DNA of 64,000 bases from Carpediemonas membranifera BICM (taxonomy: Eukaryota; Protista; Fornicata), in NCBI GenBank assembly GCA_019828565.1, contig JAHDYR010000003.1, positions 495,409 to 559,408 of the forward strand, given 5' to 3'. The notes beneath the pieces are model-generated. The model did no database searches. It was not told the origin of the DNA and saw only the letters and a list, made by a program, of their open reading frames with translations. This document shows positions 440 to 28,809 of the stretch, in pieces. Position 1 is the stretch's first letter; every line of letters starts with the position of its first letter. The translations under genes were made by a program, and so were the position numbers.

Positions 440-759
440 TAAGTGGAATAAAATGAACGAATGACTGATGCGGCACATTCTGTTTACGCCATACGACGAT
501 TTTAGAGAGCGCCAGAGAGGTGCTGCAGGGAGAGAGCTTGTGCTTGCGTATCCTGAGGGATGCGGGATGGGAGGGGCCGACGTAATTGGCCAATCCACGT
601 TTGTGGATCACCTGGTGTCGTCCATACCGGGCGTCTCTCCGCCACAGGCTGTGTTGCTGCGCATGGAAAGCAGTGTTAACTGTGTTCTATTGCACGATAG
701 CACGGGGTTATTGACTGATGCGGCACCTACCTTAAATTGCTCGTCATCCACAGTTGTGG

Positions 760-1769
760 ATGGACCGATATCGCGCTAAGCATCGCCAAGCACCTCTCAA
801 AGGGCAATCATCCGCTCGACAAGATCATCACCTGTTCATTTCACCATGGAACGATGAGCAGCTCCGCATCCTTGGCGATAATGCGCGAGTTCTTCAGCTG
901 CTCGCCATGATGGTCCCTTTGGATGCGGAAGATCTTGGCCTCGCCTGCATTTAACCCCGGGTGCAAGCCCAATAGCACCGAGAAGGACCTCCTCGGCAAA
1001 GAGCTCGAACAGGACGTGGATTCATCAAGAATCCTTCGTGAGATGTCCAATCGAGCGGCGTACAACAAAGCCCATGCCAAGATCATTCGTGATCTCGTTG
1101 AGTACCGGAACCGCGCAGCTCACAATGAGCTTGAGCCCGACACCCCGCCCAAGGTCCTGGAGCTGGTCGAGAGCTTGGCCCAGGCCTTCTCGGTTCCATT
1201 GCACGATAACGTCAGGGCGTTCATCGCGCTGCTTAAGTCGCCAGTGTCGCTCGTTGCGACAAGTGAACATCATGCTCTGACGAAGAAGGTCAGCATTCTT
1301 GAGGATGAGATTGAGAGGCTGCGTAGCGGCGGCCGTAAGACCATGCTCAGGCTGCCAGGTGTCAGGTCTCAGCCGGAGCCCACCACTTTGGAGCAGGCAA
1401 CGATGACGACTTCGGACGTCGGAGACCTGGATGAGCTGAGGCCCAGGCCCGAAGACACGGGCAAGACGCGCGGTACGCTCATGTCCCGCACACTGACTGC
1501 TAGCCAGGTGGACCAGCTAGCTATGGTTAGAACGCATGACCCCCCGCTTGTCCTGTCAGGACGTTGCATCGTGTGCGGGGCTCATGCGAGACCTCAGAGT
1601 GGGCTTGCCGTCGTACCCTCAACGACGACACCCAAAGATCCTTGCCGAACGTTGATTCGGAAGGTTAGGACTGGGAATACTCGCGACGTCTCTGTCTACC
1701 CTCACAGATGAGGCATTTGAGTGGGTCAAACGTCGCGATCAGACAGGCAAGAGAGCGAGACAGGAATAA
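760..1769 (+). CDS. Swt1-like HEPN-domain protein, copy 1 (frameshifted at homopolymers)
   Basis: RxxxxH motif (EYRNRAAH) in Swt1-like helical context, then coiled coil and C-terminal CxxC. Intact copy at 12921-13928. Confidence 0.65.
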
Positions 1770-1790
1770 ATGAATGTATATGTGCATGTC

Positions 1791-2171
1791 TGGGCCTCAG
1801 CGCTGTCGTTCAGGCCAATCCACGTTTGTGGATCCGTGCAGTTTATGGCTTATCGACCGGACATCTCCTGAACTGAGCGCCAGGGGCGGAGGTGGCGTTG
1901 GCGTGGGGCGTGGAGGCGCTGGGGGCGGGGGTGGCGTTGATATTGGGCAATTACATAAAGTGCACGGTGCTTGGAATTTCATTCCAACCTCAAAATGGCG
2001 GGAAAGCATTATTGGAAGGAACTAGTGGCAGCTATGCGGTTCTTTATACTGCAAAAGCAACCAGCTGTCGTCAAAAGCGCGCCATCTACCATCAATAACC
2101 AACATCTGCGTTTGCACTCCACTGTTCTCGGTCGTTAATGCACAAAAATCACTAAACAACATCAGAAAGGA
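1791..2171 (+). repeat. Noncoding module M, copy 1
   Basis: ATCCAC-N4-GTGGAT palindrome (1818-1833), G-rich tract, TAAAGTGCAC (1956-1965), CACTAAACAACATC. Near-identical to four other copies. Confidence 0.95.
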
Positions 2172-2208
2172 ACAAAAAGATAGATACTATAGACGTCCGT
2201 TTACCTAT

Positions 2209-24980: not shown

Positions 24981-26122
24981 AGATTTGGATATGCCCGTGT
25001 AGCCAGCGGTTCATGACCTGCAGCAGACATTTGGACGTACAGCGGGATACCACATCAATTAGGTCACTTGCGGGCTAAGATTGTCGTTGTCGATCGTCAT
25101 TCACCGGAGGAGCAGGCCAGAGTCACTTGCCATCTGGCGCATCATGAGGAGATATTGGAATGTGATGATGTGTTTATTGACTAAATGAGCTGGAATTAGG
25201 CGGGTTTGATGTTGCTTACATGCTCTGTGGCATGCCTGATGTCCAAAGATGTATTTTGGCACAGTGATGTTGTTTAGTGTGCTCATTGCTGACCGCATAG
25301 TTATCTGACTTCAATGTGTCGTGTTGATGCCAAGAAATCGATGGTAGCTCGCACGTTTGAGGTAGTTGCTTGTTGCATCGATGCAACGCACTTTAAGGAT
25401 TAACCACCTGCACCCCATAGCCGTTTCCTAAGGCCAGATACGGTCCTCTGTAGCGTATATACACGCGTGAATTGGGACTAGATGGGACTAGATGCAGTGT
25501 TGTGGCATGATCTGCAAGATCGACCAGCCCCTGGATCACTTGGGCCTGTCTCCGTGCCCGGCCTGTTGCGATCAATGATGGTGATTACTTGCAACGAACG
25601 CGATCACCGGAAATTACCTTACCTTACCTTACCTGCAGGTACCATGGGTGTTCGTTTTCGTCTCCAAACGCCATGGTGTAAGAGCATAAAGTGCATTTTC
25701 TGTTTACTGTGCCGTTGGGGATTGATGGCGCTGGCGTAGGGGTGCTGTGTGGGCGCCAGGGATGAGGCGCCAGGGATGAGGGCGCCAGGATGAGGCGCCA
25801 GGGATGAGGCGCCAGGATGAGGGCGCCAGGGATGAGGAGTACAGTATTTGAACCCCGAAAACGCCATATTACCAGCACCAATGAGCTTCATCAACGAAGA
25901 TGCGCTCACTGGTGCCGGTTATGGCGTTTTCGGGGTTCGTCGATCATTCTGCTCCCAAATCTGCACCTGTATTTTCGTGAGCATGCCCGGGAGCTGGGCC
26001 AGACGAGTGGTGCCACAGGGACTAAGCTCCGCTGCTCAGCCTCTGCCAGGCGACACTCGTCTGAATTCTGCACGAAAAAATTCAGACGACGAATGATGGG
26101 CAAAGGGCCGCGAAAACGCTGA

Positions 26123-27027
26123 TATCAGTCTCACAGCCTCCCTTCATGCATATAGTCTGCTTCTCAGCGTTTGAACAGAGCTCACAGACGGTGAACGTCT
26201 TGTCATTGTTGTTCTTGTCCTTGCGAGTGACCGTCGAAAAGCTATCATCCTCTGTGTCGGAACTAGCCCCGCGACACCTCACAGATTCTGTGGACGAACC
26301 TGTGGCAGAAGTCGCACTCTAAGACAGTTTCGTCTGTTCTACCGTCAACGAAGAAGAGGCCACGTAAGTCTGCGCAGTAAGGGCAACACTTGCGGAGGCT
26401 GTTCTTCCACATCTTGGCAGTGCTGCCCATGAAGTATTCCGCGTCGGAAGCGCCTGGGTTCGTGCTCCTAAACTGCTCAGTCATGTGGTTCATGGCCTCA
26501 ATCATCTCAGCGACGTTGGCACCGTTGACTGACGAAGCTTGCATTGCACGCGTGGAGTCAACGGACATAGTGGGCTGCTCAGCGGTCTGAACAGTGGGGT
26601 GGGGGGTGGGGACGGCAGGATTGCGGCGCGGCTGGCACACCCGGAAGGCTCTTTGGGAGCTGTCGAGCTTGGAATTTCGCAAATGATCAATTTCAGCGTC
26701 AGTGAGGGTTACAAGCTGGCTGAGTCCGGCTATCAATGCGGCACGCCCTGTATCTGTCGCGTGAATTCCTTGGTAGATGCCCTTCGTGTTAGGAGAGAGT
26801 TTGCGGCCAGCAAGGTTCTCGATAGCCTTGGGTACTGACCTCATGAAGTCCTACTTGCGCGGCATGCGCTCTAGAATAGTTTTTGGGAGGATTGCAAGGA
26901 TGGCATCCGCGATGGAGCGACAATCGCATTTCGTGCTTCTCTCTTCCCAACGATAGCATGTTGCGATGATTGTGTGCACAATATCACGCACAGTATCTCT
27001 TGAAAGCCGCTCCTGGTCTTCTACCAT
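26123..27027 (-). pseudogene. PHD-finger gene, copy 1 (in-frame TAG at 26851-26853, frameshift near 26268, 3' end joined to a repeat block)
   Basis: CPYC...LECDFCHRFVHRIC...CELC matches C4HC3. Upstream ATG 27027 is in frame. Confidence 0.65.
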
Positions 27028-27082
27028 ACTGCCCCCCTTTTGTGGGGGTGTAAAAAAAACTGAGTGCAGTTTTAAGTTGGAA

Positions 27083-27298
27083 ATGGAATCCTACAGGTAT
27101 AGAGACTATTACGAAGAGATAGGAACCGTTATAGCTGCAATTGATGCAATATTAGCGCATCCAGGACTGTGGGCGGTAGCAGAGCGTGCTGGAATGGATA
27201 GATTAGCAAGAGCGAAGGACTTACTCAATATAGAGCAAGAAAGGGCCAAATGCGGGATTCCGCCATCAAGTTCAGAAGAGTACAGTGATTCACAGTAA
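27083..27298 (+). CDS. Small hypothetical protein (71 aa), divergent from the PHD gene; duplicate at ~29769-29984
   Basis: ATG ORF starting ~55 bp from the divergent PHD ATG. Confidence 0.35.
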   Translation: MESYRYRDYYEEIGTVIAAIDAILAHPGLWAVAERAGMDRLARAKDLLNIEQERAKCGIPPSSSEEYSDSQ

Positions 27299-28809
27299 AC
27301 CGTAGCGATCTATTGAGTTATATTCAGTTCTGGCCATGTTCGGCTTTTCCGGAATGTCAAAAATTTGACACGTCCATTTCTCCAAATTGCTGATTGCCAA
27401 CGCTAGACCAGACATGCCAGGCTGTAGTACACGTGCTATACTACAACGTGGTGGTTCTGGTTTGCCGTTGGCAATCAGCAATTTCGAGAACAGACAAACT
27501 TCTTTTGCGATTTTTGCAACTTCTGGAGCATATATCATTTGGTACAGACCCAGCCACGCAATAAAAACGCATAGCGTGGCTTAACATGGTCGGAACTATC
27601 CTAAAAAAGTTTGCGGTAAATATTGAGTAAATATTTAATATAGATCTCGAGATTTAACGTCCCTTAGGTAGCCCTTGGATGCAAACATCCGCCCAGTAAA
27701 TTTTGCTGTACAGCTCTAGCCCAATACAAAAATATGAGGGCTCGAAGTTTTGGCCTTCTCAGAAAAAGGTGGCAGTATACTGCTACTTTTCTTTGCTTGA
27801 GTAGCTGTATTACACCCCCTCCAGACAGCATGGAGGAGATATTGGAATGTGATGATGTGTTTATTGACTAAATGAGCTGGAATTAGGCGGGTTTGATGTT
27901 GCTTACATGCTCTGTGGCATGCCTGATGTCCAAAGATGTATTTTGGCACAGTGATGTTGTTTAGTGTGCTCATTGCTGACCGCATAGTTATCTGACTTCA
28001 ATGTGTCGTGTTGATGCCAAGAAATCGATGGTAGCTCGCACGTTTGAGGTAGTTGCTTGTTGCATCGATGCAACGCACTTTAAGGATTAACCACCTGCAC
28101 CCCATAGCCGTTTCCTAAGGCCAGATACGGTCCTCTGTAGCGTATATACACGCGTGAATTGGGACTAGATGGGACTAGATGCAGTGTTGTGGCATGATCT
28201 GCAAGATCGACCAGCCCCTGGATCACTTGGGCCTGTCTCCGTGCCCGGCCTGTTGCGATCAATGATGGTGATTACTTGCAACGAACGCGATCACCGGAAA
28301 TTACCTTACCTTACCTTACCTGCAGGTACCATGGGTGTTCGTTTTCGTCTCCAAACGCCATGGTGTAAGAGCATAAAGTGCATTTTCTGTTTACTGTGCC
28401 GTTGGGGATTGATGGCGCTGGCGTAGGGGTGCTGTGTGGGCGCCAGGGATGAGGCGCCAGGGATGAGGGCGCCAGGATGAGGCGCCAGGGATGAGGCGCC
28501 AGGATGAGGGCGCCAGGGATGAGGAGTACAGTATTTGAACCCCGAAAACGCCATATTACCAGCACCAATGAGCTTCATCAACGAAGATGCGCTCACTGGT
28601 GCCGGTTATGGCGTTTTCGGGGTTCGTCGATCATTCTGCTCCCAAATCTGCACCTGTATTTTCGTGAGCATGCCCGGGAGCTGGGCCAGACGAGTGGTGC
28701 CACAGGGACTAAGCTCCGCTGCTCAGCCTCTGCCAGGCGACACTCGTCTGAATTCTGCACGAAAAAATTCAGACGACGAATGATGGGCAAGGGCCGCGAA
28801 AACGCTGAT

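Follow-up and report, generated by a model that had tools for sequence, protein, structure and literature searches.

The first 33.5 kb of a 64-kb window on contig JAHDYR010000003.1 of Carpediemonas membranifera (the window is the whole stretch of DNA analysed, and evidence from beyond it is at the protein level only) form a repeat island. The island belongs to an undescribed family of large, recently mobile, cargo-rich transposons of the predicted CMCT type, which carry internally a repeated non-coding module. Gypsy sequence follows from 33.5 to 39 kb, and host genes start at about 40.6 kb. Our preferred reading, held with slightly more confidence than doubt, is that the modules are predicted internal DNA-level binding sites, likely att/res relics, while a transposase would move whole elements and ectopic recombination would reshuffle their cargo.

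Five copies of a module termed M, two of N, one of O and three of R constitute one diverged, non-random family of homologous non-coding sequences of 300–500 bp. In all of them a directional core (GCACTTTA) is accompanied by a spaced box of the AAATGGCG type and by recurring AACAACATCA motifs. An earlier note, made from the letters of this DNA, had listed these ordered landmarks and described the family as punctuating a mobile island with shuffled genes, and both descriptions hold. One side of the core carries an arm made of GCAAC, the AAATGGCG-type box at 23–30 nt from the core centre, and two or three direct repeats of the CTAA..AACATCA type, which are 52–56 nt apart in M, N and O. The arm is 3' of the core in N and O; in M and R it is 5' and inverted. 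N1 with M4, N2 with R2 and O with R1 form pairs with direct cores and inward-facing arms, which is the layout of attL/attR pairs. Opposite the arm, a palindrome lies at a fixed distance from the core in M, R1 and the leader of a HEPN-like gene. The ATCCAC-N4-GTGGAT palindrome was said to precede the core by 122–128 nt. It does so in M1 (122 nt), M2 and the HEPN leader (124 nt each) and R1 (128 nt); in M3 the gap is 84 nt, and R2 and R3 have no palindrome. One further such palindrome occurs in the host part of the window, at 52045.

M1 (1787–2171, plus strand) is flanked by the HEPN-like and SET-like genes, both of which end towards it, and comprises a palindrome (1818–1833), a G-rich spacer, the core (1956–1965), AAATGGCG at 1993 and repeats near 2097 and 2152. 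The right border of M2 (3651–4122, plus), defined against M4 and M5, is 293 nt from the core centre and ends in GAC. M3 (5465–5853, plus) has a 40-bp deletion within the G-rich spacer, and to its right there is a remnant of the recombinase-kleisin gene described below, derived from the 3' end (77% identical to 20635–20732). M4 (12426–12903, minus) and M5 (14460–14936, minus) are 478-bp direct repeats flanking a 2034-bp HEPN unit, and the border of M5 at 14460 cuts an open reading frame (ORF) that runs in from the window start. N1 (9094–9595, plus) separates divergent recombinase-kleisin and OTU-like genes; N2 (22487–22989, plus) occupies the equivalent position in the inner element, Tn-B, described below. 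O (19696–19991, plus; right end approximate, with GAC at +293) is faced by R1 (20091–20537, minus; palindrome 20522–20537). R1 and R2 (25093–25509, minus) are 417-bp direct repeats around a 5002-bp unit. R3 (27833–28196, minus) is truncated and is not an independent copy, being part of a 2687-bp tandem duplication.

Within each family the copies are nearly identical. The 385-bp core part of the five M copies differs only by homopolymer indels, the deletion in M3 and one or two edge bases; N1 and N2 are 93% identical over 503 nt, with identity beginning at the core; and R1, R2 and R3 are mutually 99.8–100% identical. Within 250 nt after the core, M, N, O and R all contain the 10-nt AACAACATCA, and they have no longer word in common. 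None of 3000 dinucleotide shuffles reached a 9-nt word common to the four families, and none of 5000 quadruples of real non-coding sequence reached a common word of 8 nt. Pairwise local alignment (200 shuffles) gave z scores of 10.3 for M–O, 7.7 for M–N1, 3.8 for N2–R, 2.8 for N–O and 2.7 for M–R, and O is an ungapped homologue of the M arm, identical at 56 of 105 nt from the ATGGCG box. In leave-one-out nhmmer searches the omitted family was recovered at E 0.04–0.5 (M) or E 6 (R), and N and O went undetected. Whole-module profile similarity is weak, and it is apparently the short landmarks that unite the family.

The suggestion that the module is a structured RNA finds no support: arm segments of M, N, O and R gave no folding signal on either strand (z −1.9 to +1.0), and Rfam had no match in the island at E≤1. 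On one strand, the left part of R1 and the HEPN leader reached z −2.2 and −3.0, and one of eight folded cores lies inside a significant hairpin. Comparison of M with O gave no codon signature (22, 17 and 17 identities at the three codon positions; 2 synonymous and 23 non-synonymous changes). Target-site duplications (TSDs) at the modules measured 0 bp at eight of nine copies tested and 2 bp at M3, and borders vary between copies.

Several other sites resemble the module in part. The HEPN leader (593–761, plus) consists of a palindrome (593–608), a core-like TAAATTGC at 733 and a second palindrome (746–761) that overlaps the HEPN start codon; it is mirrored at 13927–14095. Site K (7267–7326, core 7296), directly upstream of a kinase ORF, is a hairpin of about 21 bp with TAAAGTGC in its loop (folding z −3.4, 0 of 200 shuffles). 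It is a possible further member that the earlier note had missed, as it had T, and it scores weakly against the arm profile (p 0.013–0.04). T1 (16699–16884, minus; core 16877), with copies at 25509 and 28196, has the core plus 12 nt in common with N; it did not score against the arm profile, and its membership is weak. Site 32766 and three TAAAGTGC sites outside the island had no score against the arm and were treated as chance. Host intergenic regions lack the module (3 of 96 comparisons at p≤0.03, the chance expectation), and the sole host AACAACATC appears to be an exon start. Searches with exact patterns taken from M and from M/O gave no locus in viral contigs and none in metagenome contigs. 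The transposase leader has, beside a breakpoint, a G-rich stretch (15075–15200, minus strand) that is homologous to the M spacer (z 11.6). Short (TTACC)n runs occur within T at 16804–16824 and past the Gypsy sequence at about 39005–39020; they could be telomere-like seeds or repeated splice donors.

The carrier of O, R and N2 is a giant DNA transposon of 14.9 kb, Tn-B (15607–30518), to which these modules are internal. It has perfect 22-bp terminal inverted repeats (TIRs; 15607–15628 and 30497–30518) that begin CATG, and a 2-bp GA TSD on both sides, called against intact paralogues, 854 amino acids long, of the transposase gene into which it is inserted. Modules had also been proposed to be an element end; the termini of the carrying transposon, 22-bp TIRs plus GA, lie elsewhere. 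Tn-B itself encodes no transposase. An extra copy of the right TIR on the minus strand (27811–27832), again followed by GA, marks the junction of the 2687-bp tandem duplication. This duplication (25146–30520), joined at the right terminus plus GA, suggests local re-insertion of the element into its own copy. A subterminal block of 81 bp, 88% identical, is found in direct orientation near both Tn-B ends (16461–16541 and 27706–27786). M and N1 are likely inside an outer element, Tn-A, whose likely right end (33527–33534, minus) consists of the terminal 8 nt of Tn-B followed by GA and abuts a truncated Gypsy integrase frame.

The interrupted gene is read on the plus strand and is split by Tn-B at codon 133. 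Codons 1–133 lie upstream of the insert (15209–15606), and codons 133–854 lie downstream (30519–32515), a part that has lost about 57 internal codons and is frameshifted near 31525. At other places in the genome, the ORFs at 15209 and 30420–32515 form a single 854-amino-acid gene, with six members in its cluster, spread over six contigs. We predict that it encodes a CMCT-clade (Transib/EnSpm/Plavaka-like) DDE transposase. Its neighbours in a protein atlas are Transposase_21, RAG1 and Plavaka clusters (features 0.91–0.92, TM 0.55–0.60 by query), and the EnSpm/Transib/Plavaka assignment draws solely on this atlas because Pfam and PDB sequence searches were blank. Candidates for the D..D..E residues lie near positions 339, 422 and 687–691 and are conserved in the paralogue P0012. 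By eye, CMCT motifs are partial only (SPFSS after the second D, YLNAVVSV..VH before the E), and in P0042 neither the C(2)C nor the H(3-4)H motif is apparent. CMCT lineages mostly have CA..TG ends and TSDs of 2–5 bp (PMC12730594). P0012, on another contig, represents a second transposase family (57% identical over the aligned part), which may use other termini; its locus tag is three away from a recombinase-kleisin gene.

Beside each N copy lies a minus-strand gene for a protein with an N-terminal tyrosine-recombinase fold and a kleisin-like segment. Copy 1 (7432–8674) has its frame broken near 7885 and its kleisin-like segment at about 7801–8002; in copy 2 (20641–22029) the segment is at about 21067–21375. 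The family comprises 25 sequences in 9 clusters, all from Carpediemonas membranifera. Support for the fold comes from hhalign (score 39–40, E 5e-5 to 1e-4; maximum 23 in 60 column shuffles, 17 for the reversed profile) and from atlas rows for Phage_int_SAM, Integrase_1 and NDC10_II at 0.91–0.92. The box-I Arg and the HxxR His are absent in 21 of the 21 members that span both motifs, the other 4 being N-terminally incomplete, and the C-terminal region expected to hold the catalytic Tyr is replaced by the kleisin segment. By these residues, the protein is probably catalytically inactive. The kleisin segment is 66–68% identical over 62 amino acids to P0055 (blastp E ~1e-23) and 50–59% identical to P0058 (E ~1e-10), two unnamed proteins that match Rad21_Rec8_N at E 0.0096 and 1.8e-7, one of them above the cut-off. 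By these matches, the cargo protein appears to be a recombinase fold fused to a Rad21/Rec8-type kleisin segment, and this fusion is the most surprising feature of the island. The segment corresponds to the middle of kleisin proteins and, by position and motif, is a putative Scc3/STAG-binding region, which a PDB profile search did not confirm. C. membranifera is credited with two Rad21-like genes and one STAG1-like gene (PMC8516963). A profile search of 1.84 billion representatives (7 hits) contained no intact relative, and neither the transposase nor the recombinase-fold protein could be placed in a credible family by Pfam, PHROGs, phage tblastn or PDB sequence searches. Motifs of the TCTGAAAT type, repeated and partly inverted, surround both recombinase-kleisin starts (8640–8980 and 22031–22360) and are possible operators.

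Island genes are multi-copy and, judged by protein locus tags, have neighbours in varying order on other contigs. OTU-like genes adjoin transposase genes (5005/5006, 4389/4390), recombinase-kleisin genes (8043/8044, 5861/5860, 0003/0002) and a HEPN gene (7187/7189), and a transposase adjoins a recombinase-kleisin gene (6817/6818). Recombination between element copies is visible in protein chimeras: the recombinase-kleisin protein has two types of N-terminal and two of C-terminal part, each of the four pairings is found, and the switch lies in the conserved middle. The shuffling of genes proposed in the earlier note is borne out. An integron-style array driven by the modules is not supported: the island has no intact integrase, 1 of 17 borders is at a core, and the sequences flanking M1 to M5 give no four-way exchange, although a crossover within the identical core part of M would be invisible. 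The 17 borders are those of duplicated blocks, two of them describing one junction; one falls at a core (N1/N2) and one at a TIR, and 16, including the TIR border, are 120–1690 nt from any core. It is likely that modules are copied along with neighbouring genes and are not agents of shuffling.

These observations can be arranged in four steps. Whole elements move via CA..TG inverted termini and duplicate GA, as observed for Tn-B; the enzyme would be the encoded CMCT transposase. Each module, as observed, combines a directional core with an arm of boxes at fixed spacing. In the third step, the modules would be relics, att/res-type sites that once served a tyrosine recombinase; this enzyme would have lost its catalytic activity and become fused to a kleisin segment, and would now bind the sites and recruit cohesin. 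We put this step forward tentatively and consider it less probable than the reading as a whole. Finally, ectopic homologous and microhomology-mediated recombination among about 25 element copies would reshuffle the cargo, with near-identical modules serving as homology blocks. A more specific form of the third step, in which the inactive recombinase fold would attach to the former att-like modules and the kleisin segment would recruit Scc3/cohesin for the element's own partition or loop anchoring, has a low probability.

A number of points weigh against this account. The window does not reach the left end of Tn-A, and the right end agrees with Tn-B over no more than 8 nt, which is why we infer, and do not observe, that M and N1 are placed in Tn-A. 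N1/N2 identity starts 1 nt from the core centre. The M2|M4 and R1|R2 borders both end in GAC at a distance of 293 nt from the core, and O likewise ends in GAC at +293. This pattern was recognised post hoc, and aligning the distal parts of M, N, O and R gave nothing significant. Defined borders of this kind (core, +293 GAC) would favour self-mobile units. The atlas rows for the recombinase fold have just 93–119 of 256 features in common, single-sequence hhalign of the fold is not significant (E 0.16), and a PDB profile search with the kleisin segment matched no solved RAD21 structure. The leader of the recombinase-kleisin gene has other inverted repeats, which are possibly its real sites. M1, M2 and M5 have no N/O-type partner, and the function of the modules as binding sites is itself a likely prediction from their sequence.

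We regard a rolling-circle explanation as unlikely. In it the giant transposons would contain nested HUH Rep units, with the cores as their nick sites or short direct terminal repeats, and a geminivirus-like or Helitron-like Rep acting in trans would copy the gene units that lie between co-oriented cores. Co-oriented cores bracket gene units of 0.7–3.6 kb, the modules have no TSD, the core of K sits in a hairpin loop, and borders occur at the core and at +293. The core reads TAAAGTG, and the direct repeat of Replitron-1 is given as TAAAGG in the available text of its description (PMC10288648). Four geminivirus-like Rep genes and Helitron-related proteins are recorded for the species, yet these Rep genes are noted as unexpressed in the same partially available source (PMC8516963). 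No Rep domain was found in the 36 window ORFs scanned. Just one of the eight folded cores lies in a significant hairpin, most borders are far from cores, and, with a hand count of 4 sign changes in 13 pairs, cores of one orientation do not clearly group together beyond chance.

A marginally less probable alternative sees in the modules ordinary transcription control of the cargo genes, with N as a bidirectional promoter and M and R as terminators or insulators, multiplied by segmental duplication and kept by selection on host transcription-factor sites. The positions of the modules speak for it: N lies between divergent starts, and M and R lie mostly just past stop codons and hexamers of a polyadenylation-signal type. 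Moreover, a palindrome overlaps the HEPN start codon, K is just before the kinase ORF, and fixed spacing without folding fits protein sites on DNA. However, the same arm occurs in opposite contexts (5'–5' for N, 3'–3' for M and R, and no adjacent gene for O), and the module is absent from host intergenic regions, where matches stayed at chance.

Live att sites, across which an intact tyrosine recombinase encoded elsewhere in the genome would move cassettes in the manner of an integron or an integrative and conjugative element, are distinctly unlikely. All three N/O-to-M/R pairs have attL/attR-like geometry; over the core, N1 and M4 have 12 nt in common and N2 and R2 have 9 nt; the N1/N2 border is at the core, and a recombinase-fold gene adjoins N. 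Against this stand the loss of the box-I Arg and HxxR His in 21 of 21 members, the kleisin segment in place of the catalytic-Tyr region, the failure to find an intact relative among the 1.84 billion representatives, and the lack of attC-like folding.

Very little probability attaches to the idea that episomal forms of the element use the modules as partition sites or as replication origins that need no ORC. The host is described as being without ORC, Cdc6 and most kinetochore subunits (PMC8516963), and the palindrome, fixed-length unconserved spacer and core resemble CDEI-II-III as outlined for yeast in partially available text (PMC6077249). The element also has a satellite array, long dyads (z ~ −12) and the kleisin fusion. 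Yet the spacer is GC-rich and not AT-rich, 11 copies crowd within 28 kb, elements are dispersed with several per contig, and the palindrome is missing from N, O, R2 and R3. Finally, nanopore assembly chimeras as the origin of the module junctions are hardly credible: homopolymer indels and frameshifts are frequent in the island and the M copies are near-identical, but the TIR/TSD insertion is codon-precise in a gene intact elsewhere, the tandem duplication joins exactly at TIR plus GA, the order OTU-like, OTU-like2, HEPN recurs on another contig, and the divergence of M, N, O and R cannot come from assembly.

Other candidates were rejected outright. Modules as CAC-type TIR ends or signal-joint fusions lack a TSD, and the true termini are elsewhere. 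N as a CAC..GTG miniature inverted-repeat transposable element was dismissed on its equal position in both elements, the lack of a TSD and similarity that continues beyond the GTG. R or M pairs as long terminal repeats have no TSD and differ at their ends. A small ORF from ATGGCG meets stops in N and O and has no codon signature. For a Helitron 3' end there is no consistent CTRR past the palindrome (by eye), and for a branch point or 3' splice site, the host intron seen has another motif.

The remaining cargo includes an OTU-like gene with a C-terminal OTU-like protease domain (9863–11581, plus; second copy at about 23263–24980), the HEPN-like gene (12921–13928, minus; inverted copy at 760–1768; Pfam HEPN at E 0.013–0.024, under the cut-off), a SET-like gene (2209–2922, minus) and a protein kinase ORF (5962–7137, minus; Pkinase E 4e-23). 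The SET-like and OTU-like labels were assigned by eye, with no Pfam match, and HEPN and PHD matches are below the cut-off. The HEPN-like gene and the gene at 2989 cluster with named C. membranifera proteins from several contigs. Single-sequence folds had a predicted confidence (pLDDT) of 40 and 34, too low to be used; a promoter scan was empty, its model being bacterial and not applicable to this eukaryote.

A satellite block (16942–19598) between the T and O cores contains 148 units of a 14-mer, a long hairpin (19050–19138) and 13 units of a 15-mer, the two units being inverted look-alikes (11 of 14 positions). The block is foldback-like, and its two other copies have 6 copies of the 14-mer. 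Long imperfect hairpins are found at 19050–19138 and 27378–27490 (copies at 25850, 28537 and 30064), with arms of about 40 and 52 nt and z ~ −12. The Gypsy sequence (33535–39000) is in tandem, with two identical 125-bp repeats (34296 and 38628) and integrase fragments on both sides, and is cut at 33535 by the outer element.

Literature searches, which covered titles and abstract starts without most subscription journals and Repbase reports, gave no description of Carpediemonas elements or of transposon-captured kleisins, and papers on giant cargo transposons in protists, within the same limits, had no description of these elements. The hairpin folding of attC sites is a defining feature of integrons. 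As far as the accessible text goes, bacterial integrons likewise have a repeated non-coding site between their genes, which stand singly or in pairs, close to a recombinase gene, here a recombinase-fold gene (PMC6431247); unlike them, the island has no active integrase, no folding attC, mixed gene orientation and scattered borders. Replitrons, in the portion of their description available, end in short direct repeats, bear a terminal palindrome and in most cases leave no TSD (PMC10288648). The modules resemble them in short direct repeats of similar sequence, palindromes and the usual lack of a TSD; in contrast to Replitrons, they have no Rep gene between the repeats, their arms are inverted and most borders are off the repeat. 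The point centromere is described in partially available text as having an AT-rich spacer of 78–86 bp (PMC6077249), whereas the module spacer measures 122–128 nt and is GC-rich in M.

Closer parallels exist for the transposon and its cargo. CMCT elements (EnSpm/CACTA, Mirage, Chapaev, Transib, Plavaka, ESTA), as presented in the accessible part of PMC12730594, similarly combine a DDE transposase, CA..TG termini, a 2-bp TSD and several passenger genes, and En/Spm families of Chondrus reach 16–20 kb with 4–5 ORFs (PMC6431247, seen in part). However, the CATGCTGT termini with GA duplication are not among the termini in the available text of PMC12730594, and for the internal att-like modules and the recombinase-kleisin fusion no description was found in the sources accessible. 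If the recombinase-kleisin protein does not read the modules, they amount to repeats within a new giant transposon and would chiefly interest specialists in transposable elements. The Tec transposase of Euplotes is of the Tc1/mariner type. Tec1 and Tec2 are also TIR transposons with a tyrosine-recombinase gene beside that for the DDE transposase, thought in the part of the source available to resolve intermediates (PMC3212892); here, unlike in Tec1/Tec2, the recombinase lacks catalytic residues and ends in a kleisin segment, and the transposase is of the predicted CMCT type.

Whatever the modules do, about 25 copies of a protein joining a recombinase-type DNA-binding fold to a cohesin-subunit segment occur in a protist whose replication and segregation machinery is unexplained. 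DUF3504 proteins (PMC3212892) and Ndc10 of the yeast point centromere (PMC6077249) also have a recombinase fold without the R-H-R-Y tetrad, presumably kept for DNA binding; according to the accessible text they are domesticated host genes, whereas the protein described here is multi-copy cargo of a recently mobile element and carries a cohesin-subunit segment. The binding of Ndc10 to DNA is not sequence-specific in that same partial account (PMC6077249). If the present protein does read the modules, it would offer a testable case of a eukaryotic transposon hijacking cohesin, complete with candidate cis-sites. To our knowledge, the Rep proteins of the yeast 2-micron plasmid are not kleisin-derived. 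That plasmid, with its STB site and Rep1 and Rep2, is likewise a selfish element whose repeated cis-sites and own proteins are linked to host cohesin, as far as the accessible text describes it (PMC2174020). Unlike the episomal 2-micron plasmid, the Carpediemonas element is known from sequence alone, and its cohesin link is predicted. Should partition or loop anchoring prove to be its role, the element would represent a 2-micron- or Ndc10-like system in a eukaryote without ORC and most of the kinetochore.

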